Notes under the pieces: model-generated
The model's input: the letters and a program-made list of their open reading frames with translations, nothing else
The model's database searches: none
Told to the model about the DNA's origin: nothing
In this document: positions 5,674 to 54,546 of the stretch, piece by piece
How the letters are laid out: the number at the start of each line of letters is the position of its first letter
Numbering within the stretch: position 1 is the stretch's first letter
Translations under genes and position numbers: made by a program
IMG/VR virus record: IMGVR_UViG_3300046522_000316
Span: 250,290-314,289 of that record
Source: a virus
Taxonomy: Duplodnaviria; Caudoviricetes
Direction: 5' to 3' (one strand)
DNA: 64,000 nucleotides

Positions 5674-6401
5674 TGCTGTGCCCTCGCTGGCGATTCGTTC
5701 GATACAGGAATCGGGTGCGTAATCATGTACACGTATGGCATGCGGTATTGTTTGCCGTGCGTGCGGATCGAAACTTGATTCGGTAAAAGGCTGCTGACAA
5801 AACCCTGACGAATATTCATACCGAAAACACTTTTGCACGAACGCCCGTTAATGATGATCGCCAGTTCTACGGGATCGCCAATATGCAGTTCGTTGTCGAT
5901 TTCTGTCGAGTAGTGCGGTTGCCGACTGAGAATCGAAAACATCAATTTCAGGAACGTGGCGTTCGGACTGAAATAAATATCGTTCTGTACGTCGTGCCAC
6001 ATGCACAGCGAACGGTGTTCTTCCATTGGCCGGGTAAGCGACGTTTTACCGTCGAACACATCCTGAAGCCCGGCGCTAATTCCTTCAGGGCCACCGAGGC
6101 GTTCGAGCCTGTCGGTCGCTACAAGCGCGTACAGGCGTTTTCCCTGTACGAACAGCGTTTGATATTCGGGTTGCTCGCCCACTTGCGACAGGCGCGTTTG
6201 TGGACGGCAGGAAAGGATAACGAGCGAGTAAGGAACACCCTCAAGCAGTTCACGGCGCACGCGGTATTCGCTTTGTGGATATGCGCCGAAAAACTCCGGT
6301 GCCGCCATATCCTCATAGCTGACAATTTCCTCGACGCTTTGACCGCGATGGAGTTCGGAGTAACGGAAGCCAACACGATGCAGCAATTTAGGTTTGTACA
6401 T
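5670..6401 (-). CDS. hypothetical protein
   Basis: AAGGA SD; tiled ORF. Confidence 0.7.
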   Translation of the reverse strand: MYKPKLLHRVGFRYSELHRGQSVEEIVSYEDMAAPEFFGAYPQSEYRVRRELLEGVPYSLVILSCRPQTRLSQVGEQPEYQTLFVQGKRLYALVATDRLERLGGPEGISAGLQDVFDGKTSLTRPMEEHRSLCMWHDVQNDIYFSPNATFLKLMFSILSRQPHYSTEIDNELHIGDPVELAIIINGRSCKSVFGMNIRQGFVSSLLPNQVSIRTHGKQYRMPYVYMITHPIPVSNESPARAQQ

Positions 6402-8179: not shown

Positions 8180-8268
8180 GCTCAAACTTCCTCTAATGCG
8201 TGAGTGCTTTTGTTTCGGGCACACAATGGGCCAGCCGCCACATTACCATTCGTCGGCCCACGGGTCAA
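8180..8268 (-). promoter_or_regulatory. sigma70-type promoter plus family-A leader
   Basis: TTGACC(8268-8263)-17 bp-TAATGT(8245-8240) with extended TG; leader CACTCACGCATTAGAGGAAG. Confidence 0.7.
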
Positions 8269-8281
8269 GGTCAGGCAGGCC

Positions 8282-8578
8282 CTAGAGCGCGTAGCACTGC
8301 CGAACGGCGGGCACCGGGCCATCGGTGGTTACACGGACGGTTGCGCCCTTCTTGTCGTAGTACCGGGTAACGCTGTTGCCTGCCTTCGCCAGTTCAATCA
8401 ACGCAAGGCGCAAACCGTTTGCCCAAATGCTTAACGACCAACCGCATTCGATTTCAACAACCGAGGAAATATAACCGCGCTGCTTTGCCAAATTCTGCGC
8501 GTTACGAATCTGGTTGAAAATAATGTCTACGTCTTGTTTCGTCTGCCGTGACTTTGGCGGCATCTTCACTTTTGCCAT
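8282..8578 (-). CDS. hypothetical protein
   Basis: GAGGAAG SD; tiled ORF. Confidence 0.65.
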   Translation of the reverse strand: MAKVKMPPKSRQTKQDVDIIFNQIRNAQNLAKQRGYISSVVEIECGWSLSIWANGLRLALIELAKAGNSVTRYYDKKGATVRVTTDGPVPAVRQCYAL

Positions 8579-21526: not shown

Positions 21527-23545
21527 TTAGAATTTTACGTTCAGGATGCGATTGATTGCGCCCTTCACACGGACTTGCAGTTCAGCACGATCATTGACCG
21601 AGAAGCCAAGGCCGCTCAATTGGTCAGCGCTCGCAGGCACTTTCATTTGCGCGGAAACCGCTTCGAAAGCTTTGCGATGTTTGCTCAGTTCATCGCGCAG
21701 GTATTCGTTGTAGAAACCACGGGTGCCCTCTTCGTTCACGCAGCCTTTGAGCATAAAGAAAACATGCTCATGGCCCACGGCTTGATCGTTCCAGAAGTTT
21801 GGCGACTTCGTGATCAAATCAACCGGTGTCCATTCTTCGGTTTTGACGCCCCAGTTTTCAACCGAGGAACCTACGCCGCCGAGAATGCCTTCGCCTTCGA
21901 TGCTGATATTGCCCGCCGCATCGACGTTGATATAACCAACGGTAACGCGACGATCATTGCCCAGCGCCATTGGATGCGCGAAGCTATAGATTTTGCCCAG
22001 CACTTCAATTTCAACGTCGAAGCCGACATTATTGGTGGAACGCTGCGACCAGTTGTGAACCTTAATTTCGTAGCGGCCACGGTTGATATCGCCTTTGGCA
22101 GTCCAGAAAATGTTTTCCACTGGATCAACACTGTTCTTGGCGGAACCGGCGTTCATGTCCACATCGAGCGTGGCACCGAAAACTTTACGGGTACGGAAGT
22201 CGCAAACGTCACGACCATTGTTTACGCTCAGGTCGAGGTCATCGCCGTTCTGCCACGAAAGCGAAACGCGAATATCGCCGTCGATTTTACCGCCTGCTTT
22301 TTTCACACGTTCGCGAATCGACGACGAAGTAACTTCACCGATGTACGACCACGAAAATGGGTTGTCCCATTTCAGCAGTGGTTTCGCATCCGGATTAACC
22401 GGGGCGATCAGGGAAACGAAACTGGCGGTGTGTTCGCTCTTCACCAGCACTTCGAGGGTATCGGCTTTCGGCAAAACTTTCTTGATGAAATCTTTGATCG
22501 AAATGTCTTCAACATCGTTCAGCACTGGAACGTTTTTCTTGGTCGGTTTGATGCTGCCAAACGCGCCGCCCAGCAGTTGCTTTTTCACCGTGCCGTCAAC
22601 GAACAAAACGTCGTTAACCGAAATGTCTTCACGCACCGCATAACGACGCGCCAGCGAATCACCGAGGCCCAGTTTCTCGACCAGCTTTTCAGCTTCGTCG
22701 ATCATTTTCTGAGTGACCAACGCTTTCGAACGTTTGTAGTTCGGGCCAGCGGTTTTGAATTCGAAAGCCTTCACGGCGTTTTCGAGTTCCATGCCTTTGG
22801 TGATATCCGACAGCAGCGTGCCCACAACGTCGTTGAGAATGCGGGTGTGTGGCGTCGAATTCTTCCACAGGAAAATTTCACGACCGCGTTCGGTTTTCAG
22901 CTTGGCGTAATCCGCTTTCAGCTTGCGCAGCGCTACAACTTTCTTGCGCTTTTCGTCGCCTTTGTACAGCGAGTCGGTGTCGATCAGATCCATCACGATA
23001 TCAATCGCGAAATCCGAGATTTCATTGATCGAACGTTCCAGCAGATTTTTGTCTGCGTTGGATTCACCGATGTAGTCAGTTGGGTTTTTATCCCAACGGA
23101 AAAGCGCAGGCACCAGACCGTGGAAGTGGTGCCACACTTCGCCCGTTTCTTGGCTGGTGGTTTTCGCACAACCGTATTGCGGCATTTCCGCAATGAAACG
23201 GTTTTTGATTTTCAGCGAACGCACCTTCGCCGCCATTGCATCGGCCACCGCTTGATGCGTTGGATCATCGACCTGCACATCCCACACGGTCAGCAGCTTA
23301 CCTTTCTCGGCGTACACGACAGCACCGAGGTTGCGCACGAAGTTGTGGCAGGTATTGCACTCGTATTCGCGACGTTCACGGAACATCGGGTTGGTGCCTT
23401 CAGGGAACGACGCAAGGTAATGCGCCCACAATTCGTCACCGTGGATATCAACGAGGAAAACGCTGTTCTTTTTCCCTTCGTCTTTTTGCAGCATCGAATT
23501 GTAGTTTGCAGTTACAGCCTGACCGAATTTCGAAAAATCACTCAT
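21527..23545 (-). CDS. 672-aa protein with N-terminal Cys/His cluster and YfaP/DUF2135-like C-terminal beta domain
   Basis: ECNTCHNF and WHHFH motifs; DIRVSLSW.NGDDLDL...LDVDMN...PVENIFW...GRYEIKVHNW. Confidence 0.75.
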   Translation of the reverse strand: MSDFSKFGQAVTANYNSMLQKDEGKKNSVFLVDIHGDELWAHYLASFPEGTNPMFRERREYECNTCHNFVRNLGAVVYAEKGKLLTVWDVQVDDPTHQAVADAMAAKVRSLKIKNRFIAEMPQYGCAKTTSQETGEVWHHFHGLVPALFRWDKNPTDYIGESNADKNLLERSINEISDFAIDIVMDLIDTDSLYKGDEKRKKVVALRKLKADYAKLKTERGREIFLWKNSTPHTRILNDVVGTLLSDITKGMELENAVKAFEFKTAGPNYKRSKALVTQKMIDEAEKLVEKLGLGDSLARRYAVREDISVNDVLFVDGTVKKQLLGGAFGSIKPTKKNVPVLNDVEDISIKDFIKKVLPKADTLEVLVKSEHTASFVSLIAPVNPDAKPLLKWDNPFSWSYIGEVTSSSIRERVKKAGGKIDGDIRVSLSWQNGDDLDLSVNNGRDVCDFRTRKVFGATLDVDMNAGSAKNSVDPVENIFWTAKGDINRGRYEIKVHNWSQRSTNNVGFDVEIEVLGKIYSFAHPMALGNDRRVTVGYINVDAAGNISIEGEGILGGVGSSVENWGVKTEEWTPVDLITKSPNFWNDQAVGHEHVFFMLKGCVNEEGTRGFYNEYLRDELSKHRKAFEAVSAQMKVPASADQLSGLGFSVNDRAELQVRVKGAINRILNVKF

Positions 23546-23597
23546 GTACTTACACTTCCTTCATGTTGGTATATTTTTAGGATCGCTTGGCACGCAA

Positions 23598-23843
23598 TTA
23601 CATTTCGCGTTTGCTTTTGTCTTTGCGTAATTCGCCAACGAATCCGAGGTCTTTTTTGCAGCCCAAACAAATGCCGTGACAGGCCATGTTTTCGCGGTAG
23701 GCTTTGTGCGGGCACCGCCACTGCTTGAGCTTGTCGAGGAACGCCAGCAAGACGACCACGGCAATCAGCACCAGTAGGAGGGTCATTCCCACTGCCATTT
23801 CTGCCAGCGTCTTGGAAATCCAAAACCAGAAATAGTCGAACAT
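23598..23843 (-). CDS. small membrane protein with Cys/His motif
   Basis: TM followed by CPH...CLGC. Confidence 0.6.
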   Translation of the reverse strand: MFDYFWFWISKTLAEMAVGMTLLLVLIAVVVLLAFLDKLKQWRCPHKAYRENMACHGICLGCKKDLGFVGELRKDKSKREM

Positions 23844-36413: not shown

Positions 36414-36503
36414 TTTAACTTCCTCTATTGCGTGAGTGTGTGAATCGTGGGCGCAACTTGCCCGACTGGATTTCATTGTACCTATGCACCGACGAACGGT
36501 CAA
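36414..36503 (-). promoter_or_regulatory. sigma70-type promoter plus family-A leader
   Basis: TTGACC(36503-36498)-17 bp-TACAAT(36480-36475); CACACTCACGCAATAGAGGAAG. Confidence 0.8.
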
Positions 36504-36504
36504 C

Positions 36505-36532
36505 AAACGAAAACAGCCCCTACAGGGGCCGC
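36505..36532 (-). terminator. intrinsic terminator
   Basis: GCGGCCCC-TGTA-GGGGCTGT-TTTCGTTT. Confidence 0.65.
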
Positions 36533-40881: not shown

Positions 40882-40974
40882 GATTCAAACTTCCCTAATT
40901 GCGTGAGTGGCTTTTCTGCGGGCAGCAGAAGCCCGATTGAGGCCAAAGGTATCAAAGGCCCATATAGGCGTCAA
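40882..40974 (-). promoter_or_regulatory. sigma70-type promoter plus family-A leader
   Basis: TTGACG(40974-40969)-17 bp-TACCTT(40951-40946) with TG; CACTCACGCAATTAGGGAAG. Confidence 0.7.
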
Positions 40975-41040
40975 CAAGTTTCTGCACAGCCCCACAGAAC
41001 GCCCCACAGCCACGCGCACGCGTATAGAGGAAGAACCGAA

Positions 41041-42610: not shown

Positions 42611-43073
42611 CCTTTTCGTCCTCCGGTTCAACGTAGCGCACAAGGTCGCATTTGTAATAATCGCCGTCAGCGCGCTTTTCAGAACGGCGGTGATCTTTGT
42701 AGCCGTTGGAATAAAGCCAGCCTTCGTCGATCAGCGACTTTTTCAATTTCGGATCGTCGTTGTAAGCAAGGCGCGGCTGTTCCTTGATCCACACTTGTTT
42801 CGTTTCTTTCAGCCTGCCGAGTAATTCGAAGCTGTCTTCAATAAGAAGCTCAGCGCGAATTTCTGCACGGTTGCCCAACGCGGCCATTAGCCCGCCACCG
42901 GAAATTATCACAGTGGCGAACGAGCGGTTGTTATTGCCGTCGCGCAAATTTATGTGCAGATCGAATTCGGTGTCGCAGTCGTGATCTTTACGACGCACAT
43001 CGTATTCGGTTTCACGGCGGTTGACGTTTACGCGGATCGGGTAAGTTTTCCCGGCTTTCATTTCCGTCCTCAC
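42594..43073 (-). CDS. hypothetical protein
   Basis: Tiled ORF. Confidence 0.6.
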   Translation of the reverse strand: MRTEMKAGKTYPIRVNVNRRETEYDVRRKDHDCDTEFDLHINLRDGNNNRSFATVIISGGGLMAALGNRAEIRAELLIEDSFELLGRLKETKQVWIKEQPRLAYNDDPKLKKSLIDEGWLYSNGYKDHRRSEKRADGDYYKCDLVRYVEPEDEKDDADN

Positions 43074-43705
43074 AGATAAGCGAACGTTTCCAATTCTGGC
43101 GGACGTTCTTCGTTCTTCAATTTACGCATGGCCCAAAGCGCGGTGCGCTTGCGGCCTTCGTCGTGCAGCAGGTTCAGCGGGAAAATATCTTTCGGTGGAG
43201 AATAAAAACGGCGCAGTGCATCCATCGGGTTCCGCGATTTAGGCGGAGTGTAGATTACCTGCACTTCGTGGCTCGCCATAATAAAGCGAATGACAAAGCC
43301 GTGCGTCATCATCGACAAAGTAAATTCGTCGTAAGTATCGCCGTCACAAGGGAAGCCCTCAAAATTCGGATAATCGAACTTTGGTTTCACTTCCACATTT
43401 ACAGTATCGGGATTCGATTTTGGCACGTCTTGCAATTCGTTGGCTTCGGCAATTGCCTTGGCCCGTGCCTCTTCACGTTCTGCACGCGTGAAAGGAATGT
43501 CGCGTACAGGAACAACAGGTTTTGCGTTACTCCAAAATCCGCCCGGTTCTTTTTCGACCGAAAAGGCGTCATCTGGCAATTGCAGGTCGGCGCTGGCTTC
43601 TAGCTTTCCGCTGGCGCGTGCCCCGAAGGTCATGCGATACAGAACCACAAGGCACAGAACGATGCCTAGCACGCATACAGCCAGTACATACTCTATATAG
43701 TCCAT
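43070..43705 (-). CDS. membrane-anchored hypothetical protein
   Basis: Start reassigned to MDYIEY (AAGGAGG SD); N-terminal TM. Confidence 0.65.
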   Translation of the reverse strand: MDYIEYVLAVCVLGIVLCLVVLYRMTFGARASGKLEASADLQLPDDAFSVEKEPGGFWSNAKPVVPVRDIPFTRAEREEARAKAIAEANELQDVPKSNPDTVNVEVKPKFDYPNFEGFPCDGDTYDEFTLSMMTHGFVIRFIMASHEVQVIYTPPKSRNPMDALRRFYSPPKDIFPLNLLHDEGRKRTALWAMRKLKNEERPPELETFAYL

Positions 43706-43747: not shown

Positions 43748-43785
43748 AAAAATAACCCCCTTTGCATTTACGCGCCGGGGGTGTT
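43748..43785 (-). terminator. probable intrinsic terminator after the KTSC gene
   Basis: ACCCCC...GGGGGT-TATTTTT. Confidence 0.5.
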
Positions 43786-43806
43786 TCGGTACAGCGCCCA
43801 TTTTTA

Positions 43807-45309
43807 TTACAGGGCGCGGAATTCATCGGCAGTAATTTTGCCGGTGAAAGTTGGTTGACCATCAAAGGACATGATCAGGCTGTACGGCAGTGCGCCTTTG
43901 TTCTCGGTCACGGCCACCAGTTGATCGTCACGGGTAACGATGCGAATCACGTTAACCATTTTTTCCTTGCTGCCTTTGATTACACGCACGCCCACGGTTT
44001 TGACTTGATCGCGGGTAGGCTTTTCCGAAACAACTTGCTTGGCAGCTTTTGGCGCCTTTTCAGCTTTTTCGAAATTCAGTTTTGCAGCCTTGCCGTTTAC
44101 AGTCTTGCGGGTGTTTTCAGCAGGCTTTGCAGCCGGGGCCGATGCTGCGGTTTTGCCAGCCTTCGACGGAACTTCGTGCAGGTCAGCAACGCGGAACTTG
44201 CCTTTGACCAAAACAATCGACAGCAAAGGAACACGCTTGCCGCTGGTGGTCACTACAACGCGTTCCTGCGTTTCTTTCACACGAACGATGCTCTGTACGG
44301 TTTCGTGTTTACGACCGTCCATGAAACCCTCGGCGCGCAATGCAGTAGTGCTGATTTCAGCAGCAGGCGCAGCGGCTTTCGGTGCAGCAGTTTTTGCAGC
44401 AGGTTTAACCGCAACGGTTTTCACCGGGGCTTTTTCGCTGGCGGCGTGTGCAGCTTGCGAAGCGGCCATTTTGTGGTTTTTAACCATTTTGCCTTTCTTG
44501 TCGTGGGCGATGTGCGACGAGAAATGTTTCCATGGTTGCGGCGATTGTTCGAATGCGCGAACTTCGCTCAGTGCAACGCCTTCGTATGCCCACACGGCGG
44601 CGTCTTTCAGAGTCACGAACAGGGTTTTCGTGTTGCGGTCGTACTCGGCACCGGTCAACTGAGTGCTGGTTTTGATGTTCAGGACGCGAATCGGGAACAC
44701 ACGGCCACCGGCAGCGGCTGGGGTTTCTTCTGGCAAATCTTCCTGTTCAACGGCAGCAGGTTTTTTGCCAGTGGCTTTCGGTGCAGCAGCGGCTTTTACA
44801 GGCGCCGAAGTTTCAGCCGGGGCGGTGTATTTTTCCACCATATCCAGTTTCACACGCAGCGCGCCGCGATTGTTGAATTCCAGATCGGCAACGGCGATTT
44901 TGCTGCCCTTGTCGGTTACGACGGTGCGCACGTCGTTGATTTTGGAAATGCGCAGAACGTTTTCCTTGGCGCGACCGATCATCACTACGCCCGCTTCACG
45001 AATGGCGCCCGATTTCAGTTCTTCGGCAACCGGCGCAGCGGCTTTCGGTGCAGCAGTTGCTTTCGGTGCAGCGGCAGCTTTTGCAGCGGCAGGCTTAACA
45101 GAAGCAGCAGCCGGTTTCGAAGCGTCGGCCTGTTTAGCGGCAAACTCTTTGCGCCAGTTTTTCAGGTCACGCAGTTTTACGCCGGGGGAAACTTCGGTGC
45201 CGATGCCGGGTACTTCCACGCCAGCTTTTTTGGCAGCGGAGATTTGCGCGGTCAGAGCGTCAACAGCAGCAACCAGCAGAGCAGTGGTGTTCAGAGTAGT
45301 GTTAGTCAT
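43807..45309 (-). CDS. 500-aa Ala/Lys-rich protein: three ~60-aa beta repeats plus central KTSC domain; putative nucleic-acid-binding protein
   Basis: STQLTGAEYDRNTKTLFVTLKDAAVWAYEGV...F..S....KHFSSHI matches the KTSC pattern; KPAA/PKAAA linkers; repeats at aa ~96-156, 318-376, 430-490. Confidence 0.8.
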   Translation of the reverse strand: MTNTTLNTTALLVAAVDALTAQISAAKKAGVEVPGIGTEVSPGVKLRDLKNWRKEFAAKQADASKPAAASVKPAAAKAAAAPKATAAPKAAAPVAEELKSGAIREAGVVMIGRAKENVLRISKINDVRTVVTDKGSKIAVADLEFNNRGALRVKLDMVEKYTAPAETSAPVKAAAAPKATGKKPAAVEQEDLPEETPAAAGGRVFPIRVLNIKTSTQLTGAEYDRNTKTLFVTLKDAAVWAYEGVALSEVRAFEQSPQPWKHFSSHIAHDKKGKMVKNHKMAASQAAHAASEKAPVKTVAVKPAAKTAAPKAAAPAAEISTTALRAEGFMDGRKHETVQSIVRVKETQERVVVTTSGKRVPLLSIVLVKGKFRVADLHEVPSKAGKTAASAPAAKPAENTRKTVNGKAAKLNFEKAEKAPKAAKQVVSEKPTRDQVKTVGVRVIKGSKEKMVNVIRIVTRDDQLVAVTENKGALPYSLIMSFDGQPTFTGKITADEFRAL

Positions 45310-45401
45310 TTCGAAACTTCCTAAATAGTGTGAGTGTGATACTGCGTCGGCGTGATTGCCGATTGGATTTCAGAATGCCATTACAGGCGCTTAGGTGTCA
45401 A
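45310..45401 (-). promoter_or_regulatory. sigma70-type promoter plus family-A leader
   Basis: TTGACA(45401-45396)-18 bp-CATTCT(45377-45372) with TG; CACACTCACACTATTTAGGAAG. Confidence 0.65.
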
Positions 45402-45676
45402 CTGCTTTTGCGGTGGCTTTCGTTTAGCACCGGGTAGTTCTGGCCGTGGCCGAAAAACTTTCCTGCGGCGTCGAGCCGTGTTTCCGGGGTTACGTGCCAA
45501 ACCTGCATAGGGTTTTGCAGCCGGGTACGTTTCCCGCCCGGAATCTTTTCCAGCGCTTCTTTAACCGTGGAACCGAAACCCCAATCCCCGAAGTCCACGA
45601 CGATAAAGTGGGTCAGTGCAGGATTCAGATTTTCCGGTTTCGCGATTTCGCTGGCCGCGTCTAATTTGCGAGCCAT
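45398..45676 (-). CDS. hypothetical protein, paralog of 50069..50344
   Basis: MARKL...LTHFI...G.WG.G.T..EA...QVW..TPE.R; AAGGAGG SD. Confidence 0.7.
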   Translation of the reverse strand: MARKLDAASEIAKPENLNPALTHFIVVDFGDWGFGSTVKEALEKIPGGKRTRLQNPMQVWHVTPETRLDAAGKFFGHGQNYPVLNESHRKSS

Positions 45677-46812: not shown

Positions 46813-46901
46813 TGTCAAACTTCCTTAATTGCGTGAGTGTCTAAATCGCAGGCACAGTTTGCCCGCCACCAAAGAATCTCAAAACCGGGTTCCGGTGTCA
46901 A
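46813..46901 (-). promoter_or_regulatory. sigma70-type promoter plus family-A leader
   Basis: TTGACA(46901-46896)-17 bp-GATTCT(46878-46873) with TG; ACACTCACGCAATTAAGGAAG. Confidence 0.6.
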
Positions 46902-47089
46902 CTGGTTTCGTTTTCGGTTTCCGGTTTTGGTTTTGGGTTCAGCTTTTGTTCTAGCTCGCGTTGTGCGCGCTCATAAGGGTTATCCCCGTGGCACTGGCGC
47001 CAAAGCTCTACGCATACGCCTACAACCAGAATCGCACCACAGGCGTATTGCACAAGCTCTAGGATCATTGCCCAAAAGTCGAGGGTCAT
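46898..47089 (-). CDS. small membrane protein
   Basis: TM ILELVQYACGAILVVGVCV; AGGAG SD. Confidence 0.6.
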   Translation of the reverse strand: MTLDFWAMILELVQYACGAILVVGVCVELWRQCHGDNPYERAQRELEQKLNPKPKPETENETS

Positions 47090-52181: not shown

Positions 52182-52273
52182 TTCAAACTTCCCTAATTGC
52201 GTGAGTGTAAGATTAGCGGACACAGAAAGTCCGTTGAGGCCCCAAAGGTATCAAAACCCCTATTGAGCGTCAA
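52182..52273 (-). promoter_or_regulatory. sigma70-type promoter plus family-A leader
   Basis: TTGACG(52273-52268)-17 bp-TACCTT(52250-52245) with TG; ACACTCACGCAATTAGGGAAG. Confidence 0.7.
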
Positions 52274-52310
52274 ACAGTTTCTGAAACGGCCCGGAAACCA
52301 AACCGGGGGC

Positions 52311-54100: not shown

Positions 54101-54189
54101 GGAAAACTTCCCTTATTTCGTGAGTGTAGTTACGTCGGGCACAGGGGTGCCACGCTGCGCAGTATGCACTTCTAGAGCGCTGGCGTCAA
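54101..54189 (-). promoter_or_regulatory. sigma70-type promoter plus family-A leader
   Basis: TTGACG(54189-54184)-17 bp-CATACT(54166-54161) with TG; ACACTCACGAAATAAGGGAAG. Confidence 0.75.
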
Positions 54190-54546
54190 GGCTAGGCCGT
54201 CCAGCCACATGCGCTTGACCGGGCTGTAATAGCGGCGCGAAACCGGGAAGTTAAACCCGCCCTTCAACGACACGAAATAATCGGAGGATGCAGGGGCGCG
54301 ACCTACTTCAATGATCGAATTCAAACGAACCAAAGTACCGCGATGGACTGGAATAAAATCCTCTTTGAAACGTTCGTCCGCAATCAACTGACGCAGCGAT
54401 TCAGTCCAGATCGGACGATCCTTGTTGTTGCGCAAAATAACTTCGACGTATTTGTCGGAAGCGTGAAACGCAACAATGTCTTCGCGGTTGAATTCGATCA
54501 CACGCAAACCGAGGCGTGTATTAAATTCGAAGGTCGTGCCCTGCAT
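54172..54546 (-). CDS. stand-alone LytTR DNA-binding domain protein (AlgR C-terminal-like)
   Basis: TRLG...DIVAFHASDKYV...ESLRQL...FIPVHRGTLV...LKGG...VSRR are LytTR hallmarks; no receiver domain. Confidence 0.85.
   Translation of the reverse strand: MQGTTFEFNTRLGLRVIEFNREDIVAFHASDKYVEVILRNNKDRPIWTESLRQLIADERFKEDFIPVHRGTLVRLNSIIEVGRAPASSDYFVSLKGGFNFPVSRRYYSPVKRMWLDGLALTPAL

Follow-up and report, generated by a model that had tools for sequence, protein, structure and literature searches.

What would a jumbo phage do with a protein built as a string of small basic domains? The question is raised by a minus-strand gene at positions 43807-45309 of a 64,000-nucleotide stretch of the IMG/VR record IMGVR_UViG_3300046522_000316 (here, the window), which lies on a metagenomic contig of 314 kb (JGI/IMG) and belongs to an uncultivated jumbo phage. 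The phage is akin to two Pseudomonas phages, HRDY3 of 313 kb and Lu11 of 280 kb. An earlier note on this DNA had placed the open reading frame (ORF) of 500 amino acids (aa) exactly and had proposed that its product is a multivalent binder of nucleic acids. Most early genes of jumbo phages are uncharacterized, and this one is conserved across a clade of 280- to 320-kb Pseudomonas-type phages. Its architecture is clear and unusual, combining a head predicted to dimerize, PRC-like barrels, a KTSC domain, and basic linkers. With a confidence somewhat below an even chance, we favor the reading that the protein is a cytoplasmic, strongly basic, (predicted) dimeric, multivalent nucleic-acid binder of Lu11-like jumbo phages.

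A conserved family of basic, multidomain proteins

AlphaFold2, supplied with the family alignment, predicts five folded segments (aa 8-63, 98-162, 203-288, 319-376, and 430-500) with predicted local distance difference test (pLDDT) values of ~80-90. The four stretches between them have pLDDT values below 50 and are predicted to be disordered linkers. From the N terminus, the folded segments are a helical domain, repeat 1 (R1), the KTSC domain, repeat 2 (R2), and repeat 3 (R3). On these models, "beads on a string" is an accurate description of the protein. Its isoelectric point (pI) is 9.99 and its net charge is +32, every folded bead being basic in its own right (pI 9.3-10.5). These properties are kept across 28 relatives, in which the pI ranges from 9.8 to 10.1 and the net charge from +22 to +41. 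Bead lengths are almost fixed among these relatives; the linkers vary between 21 and 72 aa in length, but their Ala/Lys/Pro composition stays constant.

The 28 relatives were retrieved by a word-indexed search, and all of the long contigs among them measure 280-320 kb. The orthologues in HRDY3 (XDJ15321, 52% identity) and Lu11 (gp007, YP_006382537, 43% identity) align over 95% of the length, and both carry the annotation "hypothetical protein." They share bead order, synteny, promoter and leader, and terminator with the 500-aa protein, from which Lu11 gp007 differs in being 463 aa long with shorter linkers. When 1.8 billion cluster representatives were searched exhaustively with a profile, just a few further clusters of the family turned up, the remaining ~1,300 matches being to the KTSC region alone. 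The family is without annotation, and its architecture has not been described before, while its component parts are of known kinds. Metagenomes of rhizosphere, soil, and plants, sampled in several studies, contain DNA nearly identical to the gene.

Three homologous repeats with a PRC-barrel-like fold

Profile-profile comparison with hhalign indicates that the three repeats described in the earlier note are mutually homologous. R1 and R2 match with a probability of 99.1% (E value 1e-18), R1 and R3 with 92.8% (E 4e-7), and R2 and R3 with 73% (E 3e-5), against 0.1-0.2% for control comparisons of the repeats with the KTSC and N-terminal domains. The repeats escaped BLAST self-comparison, and their detection required profile comparison. 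Modeled alone from 41 aligned copies, the repeat (pLDDT 94) is predicted to form a small barrel of six strands, preceded by a short helix and followed by a C-terminal helix. The repeat alignment shows Arg/Lys positions kept in every repeat, within the elements GR, R, NNRG, and RV.

The earlier note had asked whether this fold is SH3-, Tudor-, or KOW-like. The nearest folds are PRC barrels, which occupy all of the top seven places in a VIA-align comparison with 48,000 Protein Data Bank (PDB) representatives (Z 6.1-4.5 over 60-64 residues). The C-terminal domain of RimM (represented by 2dyi and 7cq1) comes out with Z scores of 6.1 and 5.6, and MTH1859, 3htr, archaeal PRC1/2, and CdvA follow at ~4.5. 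Neighbors in the ESM Atlas are likewise mostly RimM, PRC, and DUF2382 clusters, at template modeling (TM) scores of 0.63-0.72. The Z scores fall within the range where possibly just a common arrangement is shared. Foldseek found no PDB entry matching the repeat at an E value of ≤0.001, the Pfam models PRC (PF05239) and PRC_RimM (PF24986) matched none of the 41 copies at E ≤1, and a search with a repeat-only profile recovered only the Lu11 gp007 family. Because the scores are modest, the Pfam PRC models do not match, and the profile recovers the family alone, we describe the repeat as PRC-barrel-like without assigning it to the PRC family. The PRC barrels of RimM (C-terminal), MTH1859, 3htr, CdpB, and CdvA are its best structural neighbors, whereas the conserved GR..., NNRG, RV motif is specific to the Lu11 gp007 family. 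A KH fold, suggested by weak PDB profile matches at E 0.02 that set GR.KE against a GxxG-like stretch, was rejected, as the repeat is an all-beta barrel. Lu11-like phages may carry the barrel repeat in another, larger protein as well (G001, 6246-6386, within a 665-aa ORF of a relative; Lu11 I1TQF8, 616 aa).

A predicted dimerization head and interchangeable beads

In every relative, the N-terminal domain is the first bead. Predicted as two copies, it scores 0.48, compared with 0.02 for the best of three controls, and passes the mark set by the tool for a homodimer. Among proteins whose solved structure is a pair of one chain, 20 of 30 reach that mark, compared with 1 of 23 among those solved as single chains; the counts apply only approximately here because our own alignment was supplied. 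The runs agree on at least 96% of the contacts, with a partner pLDDT of at least 73. The predicted contacts include 12-12, 15-15, 19-19, and 22-22, and helix 1 would therefore pair in parallel with its counterpart. The prediction supports, rather than shows, homodimerization of this domain. Searches of the ESM Atlas by sequence features gave no usable match to it, and a PDB profile search gave chance matches only.

Behind this constant head, the beads have been shuffled during evolution. Besides the order seen in the window, relatives display N-R-R-KTSC-R-R3, N-KTSC-R-R-R3, N-R-R-R3, and N-R-R3, where N is the N-terminal domain and R a repeat. The additional repeat of four relatives (P0003, P0004, P0007, and P0010) is a fourth copy lying inside linker 1 and matches R1 at 99.8% (hhalign). 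The KTSC domain is missing from some relatives (P0036, P0037, and gp032 of the Pseudomonas phage PaBG), while the head and the repeats stay constant. Such variation in bead number and order suggests independent modules and not a fixed assembly.

PaBG gp032 (166 aa, S5WK68) has an N-terminal segment related to that of the 500-aa protein, followed by a charged linker and a single repeat that is matched by Foldseek (query-normalized TM score [TMq] 0.75, E 3e-4) and by profile (E 1e-3). With its lone barrel and without a KTSC domain, it represents a minimal form, and its linker is rich in Lys/Glu/Arg, not in Ala/Lys/Pro. This protein surfaced solely through fold and profile searches; tblastn of the 500-aa protein against phage records returned Lu11 and HRDY3 only. 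At the PaBG gp032 site (L022:4019-4519), the barrel repeat is a weak match.

The KTSC domain and its proposed partners

The KTSC domain that the earlier note had placed at aa ~213-270 is confirmed by both sequence and fold. PF13619 matches aa 215-268 (profile positions 2-55 of 58) with 37.2 bits and E 2.4e-9, the gathering cutoff being 25 bits, and Foldseek superposes the predicted bead on the solved KTSC structures 7x8c_A (target-normalized TM score 0.90, root mean square deviation 1.4 Å) and 4rgi (0.88). Both solved proteins are single-domain and ~70 aa long, whereas in the 500-aa protein the KTSC domain is one of five beads. The name derives from the C terminus of some lysyl-tRNA synthetases. 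In a separate phage family (P0064, P0121, P0045, P0068, and P0039; phrog_3292 type; 230-440 aa), the KTSC domain lies at approximately residues 100-190, flanked by an unrelated N-terminal domain and by Pro/Lys-rich disordered tails; KTSC domains within multidomain phage proteins therefore recur.

The earlier note had treated binding of KTSC domains to single-stranded nucleic acid as established. The literature that we found gives predictions, of an RNA-binding domain in one case (PMC7824862) and of a DNA-binding domain in another (PMC9503650). The latter study also notes systems of the host in which HerA-like ATPases are coupled with KTSC proteins (PMC9503650), and SIR2/HerA chains appear at low TM in the Foldseek list obtained with the whole model. 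An anti-defense decoy, whose KTSC domain would titrate out or imitate its counterpart in a HerA-type host defense, nevertheless seems a far-fetched reading of the 500-aa protein: the HerA matches are short beta-barrel matches (TMq 0.13), and it is the KTSC bead that P0036, P0037, and PaBG gp032 lack.

A proposal from the literature concerns translation, since KTSC proteins of group 2.2 jumbo phages were suggested to aid phage translation or ribosome rescue (PMC7824862). The best fold matches of the repeat are to the C-terminal PRC barrel of RimM, a 30S maturation factor, and the 500-aa protein is basic throughout. It might thus act as an RNA- or ribosome-directed factor, its KTSC domain and RimM-like barrels binding rRNA, tRNA, ribosomal proteins, or the repeated phage mRNA leaders (seven conserved copies in the window, a possible target) and biasing translation or RNA stability toward the phage. 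We consider this unlikely. The repeats resemble the RimM barrel only modestly in fold and never reach the Pfam PRC model, nothing connects the 500-aa protein with ribosomes, and a precise docking site is at odds with both the permutation of beads and the absence of KTSC from some relatives. In addition, the partner of the RimM barrel is protein S19, not RNA.

Basic linkers with conserved motifs

The Ala/Lys/Pro-rich linkers reported in the earlier note are present between all beads. Their Ala+Lys+Pro content is 50-76%, and three of the four are basic (pI ~9.8-10). Basic, disordered, Ala/Lys/Pro-rich segments are shared with AlgP (AlgR3) and PhaF of Pseudomonas and with the C-terminal tails of histone H1, all of which bind DNA nonspecifically. 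The likeness to AlgP and H1 proposed earlier holds for composition, charge, and disorder, but not for the rest: Lys makes up 10-19% of the linkers compared with ~25% of the KPAA unit, one linker is acidic, and Tandem Repeats Finder detects no long KPAA-type array, merely two to three copies of 12- to 18-nucleotide (nt) units in two linkers. Moreover, these segments form the main body of AlgP, PhaF, and the H1 tails, whereas in the 500-aa protein they are spacers between folded domains. Pfam finds no globular linker-histone (winged-helix) domain, its only match in the protein being KTSC.

Within the disorder, some residues are nearly invariant, namely, E398, N399, R401, K402, F413, A416, and E417 in linker 4. 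The AKPAENTRK and NF..AE motifs that contain them, like the acidic patch of linker 2, may be docking or autoinhibitory motifs. The patch preceding KTSC has an EQE[DE]LPEE-like sequence. Metagenomic variants, seen in low-depth contigs only, carry in-frame 15-nt insertions in linkers at 44368, 45030, and 45066, and linker length is therefore polymorphic in natural populations.

Conserved transcription signals

The putative sigma-70 promoter that the earlier note had assigned to the gene combines a perfect -35 hexamer, an 18-nt spacer, and a TGn element with a weak -10 (CATTCT, 3/6 matches); because of the latter, it was absent from the list produced by a consensus scan. The stretch of ~95 nt that begins at the -35 and ends at the ATG is almost invariant in relatives whose proteins share only 35-54% identity. 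The "family-A" leader described earlier is also real. The 22-nt block before the ATG occurs in seven copies on the minus strand of the window, against none expected, each within a promoter-plus-leader module (8185-8290, 36417-36522, 40888-40993, 45315-45402, 46818-46902, 52186-52291, and 54105-54210). Every module comprises TTGAC, a 17- to 18-nt spacer with TGn, a -10-like hexamer, a 4- to 7-bp hairpin whose stem differs from copy to copy, and a conserved CACTCACRC..AGGAAGTT block before the start codon. When leaders are folded singly, the hairpin is found at the same place in 12 of 13, with differing stem sequences; RNAalifold on a MAFFT alignment of the 13 missed it because the stems were misaligned. 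For the copy at 45.3-46.9 kb, Rfam returned no family, only two chance matches (E 0.4-0.65).

At the other end of the gene, the putative terminator proposed earlier consists of a hairpin and a T-run (43782-43748). A scan missed this hairpin because its loop is 15 nt long; its 6-bp GC stem is thermodynamically unexceptional (energy z 0.09), and a positionally equivalent hairpin and T-run lie 3' of the gene in all 10 relatives examined. The gene has a putative promoter and terminator of its own, but its mRNA need not be solely the monocistronic one of the earlier note. Read-through from the promoter at ~46.9 kb is possible because the upstream stop codon lies in the -35 and no terminator stands between. 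That stop codon (45400-45398) ends a 92-aa gene, and in several relatives, too, the upstream stop forms part of the -35 hexamer. Among the listed data sets that contain this DNA, none is registered as RNA. Four wastewater "RNA-Seq" runs over 42.5-47 kb gave scattered short contigs, probably DNA and partly from relatives, that are uninformative on expression or transcript ends.

The adjoining genes are small ORFans, all without known domains, and the Lu11 gp007 and HRDY3 XDJ15321 genes each lie within a run of small same-strand ORFans. Such neighbors are typical of an early region. In Lu11, the gene is close to the genome end. This position, along with a highly basic and largely disordered product, could fit a protein that associates with DNA inside the virion, having been packaged together with the genome, and that is then injected, as are basic internal proteins in other large phages. 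We hold this to be very improbable, since the gene has small early-type ORFans around it and a sigma-70-like promoter in front, and structural genes lie far away. The text of a PaBG virion study listing 14 abundant virion proteins does not include gp032, which is weak evidence because the survey is shallow.

A putative multivalent nucleic-acid binder

We propose that host RNA polymerase would transcribe the gene early in infection from its sigma-70-like promoter and that two chains would pair, in parallel, via their N-terminal helical domains. Each chain would present four small basic modules (three PRC-barrel-like repeats and KTSC) on flexible, mostly basic linkers of ~35-50 residues. About eight weakly binding modules per dimer, together with the lysine-rich linkers, could then grip a polyanion (DNA or RNA) by avidity, and the polyanion would be coated, bridged, or condensed. 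We lean slightly toward DNA over RNA; replicating phage DNA might be organized or shielded, or the host nucleoid compacted.

We favor this nucleic-acid binder because basic charge is conserved on all modules and most linkers and because the repeats keep their Arg/Lys positions. Further reasons are that KTSC is a predicted RNA/DNA binder, that shuffling of the beads is what one would expect of binding modules acting independently and additively, that the head is predicted to dimerize, and that the promoter is of an early type. The multivalent binding put forward in the earlier note accordingly fits the conserved charge, the bead permutation, and the predicted homodimer, while the KTSC and AlgP premises from which it started were overstated.

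Several observations weigh against this reading. No domain of the 500-aa protein shows a sequence-level sign of nucleic-acid binding, and the searchable literature on KTSC gave predictions and no binding experiment. Linker 2 is acidic, the -10 hexamer matches at three of six positions, and the fold matches of the repeat are modest (Z at most 6.1). Early timing and abundance would both be deduced from the type of promoter. Ala/Pro/Lys linkers can also be inert spacers, for instance, between the lipoyl domains of 2-oxo-acid dehydrogenase E2. Finally, the PRC barrels of characterized proteins (RimM with S19, archaeal CdpB, and the reaction-center H subunit) mainly mediate protein contacts or polymerize.

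Because known PRC barrels mostly bind proteins, a protein-protein scaffold or hub has to be weighed as well. The barrels and linker motifs would recruit host or phage proteins, which the dimeric, flexible string would gather, and the positive charge would be a by-product or would help to keep the protein near membranes or polyanions. Among the structural neighbors of the repeat, CdvA, CdpB1/B2, and RimM-S19 agree with such a role, as do the nearly invariant linker motifs (AKPAENTRK, NF..AE, and the acidic patch before KTSC) and the predicted dimerization of the head. A scaffold, however, does not require the family-wide basic charge found on every bead, no partner has been identified, and the adjoining genes are all ORFans without known domains. 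We judge a scaffold unlikely.

If the multivalent binding that we favor is true, the 500-aa protein would be a phage-encoded chromatin-like or condensate-forming protein and would offer a first functional handle on KTSC domains and on the divergent barrel repeat. A bolder version, which we regard as doubtful speculation, is that Lu11-like jumbo phages, having no phiKZ-type protein nucleus, use a dimeric H1-like protein as organizer of a viral chromatin or condensate. The eight basic modules per dimer would condense phage DNA or RNA into a membraneless factory that excludes host nucleases, and bead number would be tuned through domain gain and loss. Since Lu11 and its Pseudomonas putida host are culturable, the idea is directly testable.

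Feature map, neighboring gene, and antisense frame

Table 1. Positions of the gene, its encoded modules, and its flanking signals in the window
Feature	Positions	Strand	Basis
Whole coding sequence, Lu11 gp007 family (500 aa + stop)	43807..45309	-	28 homologues at E ≤1e-40; Pfam finds KTSC
N-terminal helical domain, aa 1-63, family hallmark, predicted homodimerization module	45121..45309	-	pLDDT 80-88; helices 8-28 and 46-63
Linker 1, aa 64-97, Ala/Lys/Pro-rich, net +3	45019..45120	-	pLDDT <50; 21-45 aa in relatives; short 15- to 18-nt tandem units
Repeat 1, aa 98-162, PRC-barrel-like small beta barrel, net +5	44824..45018	-	hhalign; single-domain model
Linker 2, aa 163-202, sole acidic linker, conserved acidic patch just before KTSC	44704..44823	-	pLDDT, composition, family alignment
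KTSC domain, aa 203-280, net +6	44470..44703	-	Pfam PF13619; Foldseek 7x8c, 4rgi
Linker 3, aa 281-318, Ala/Lys/Pro-rich, net +3	44356..44469	-	pLDDT <50, composition
Repeat 2, aa 319-376, net +5	44182..44355	-	R1-R2 hhalign 99.1%, E 1e-18
Linker 4, aa 377-429, net +6, nearly invariant AKPAENTRK then NF..AE	44023..44181	-	Family alignment, pLDDT <50
Repeat 3, aa 430-500, divergent copy with C-terminal extension, net +4	43810..44022	-	R1-R3 hhalign 92.8%, E 4e-7; pLDDT 83-89
Sigma-70-like promoter: -35 TTGACA 45401-45396, 18-nt spacer, TGn + CATTCT 45380-45372	45372..45401	-	Sequence, conservation
5' leader: hairpin 45362-45347, conserved block 45336-45315 with Shine-Dalgarno AGGAAG 45322-45317, 7 nt before ATG	45310..45371	-	
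Intrinsic-terminator-like hairpin ACCCCC, 15-nt loop, GGGGGT, then TATTTTT	43748..43782	-	Sequence; equivalent in 10/10 relatives

The downstream neighbor (43070-43705, minus strand) starts at the ATG at 43705, behind a strong AAGGAGG site, although the longest ORF would suggest 43801. Its product has a hydrophobic, probably membrane-spanning N terminus and is without a family match.

A plus-strand ORF of 520 aa (43762-45324) runs without a stop opposite the gene, and the same holds in eight relatives, but it was rejected as a coding sequence. In the sense genes of this phage, the codons TTA, CTA, and TCA are avoided (0.6% of codons), which leaves the complementary frame without stops and accounts for antisense ORFs no shorter than the genes themselves; the chance of encountering none of the three among 52 Leu and Ser codons is 0.08. 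The same shadow is seen opposite other long genes, such as that at 21527-23545, with an antisense ORF also at 21575-23728 (plus strand). Naive longest-ORF gene calling would thus choose the wrong strand at 43762-45324.

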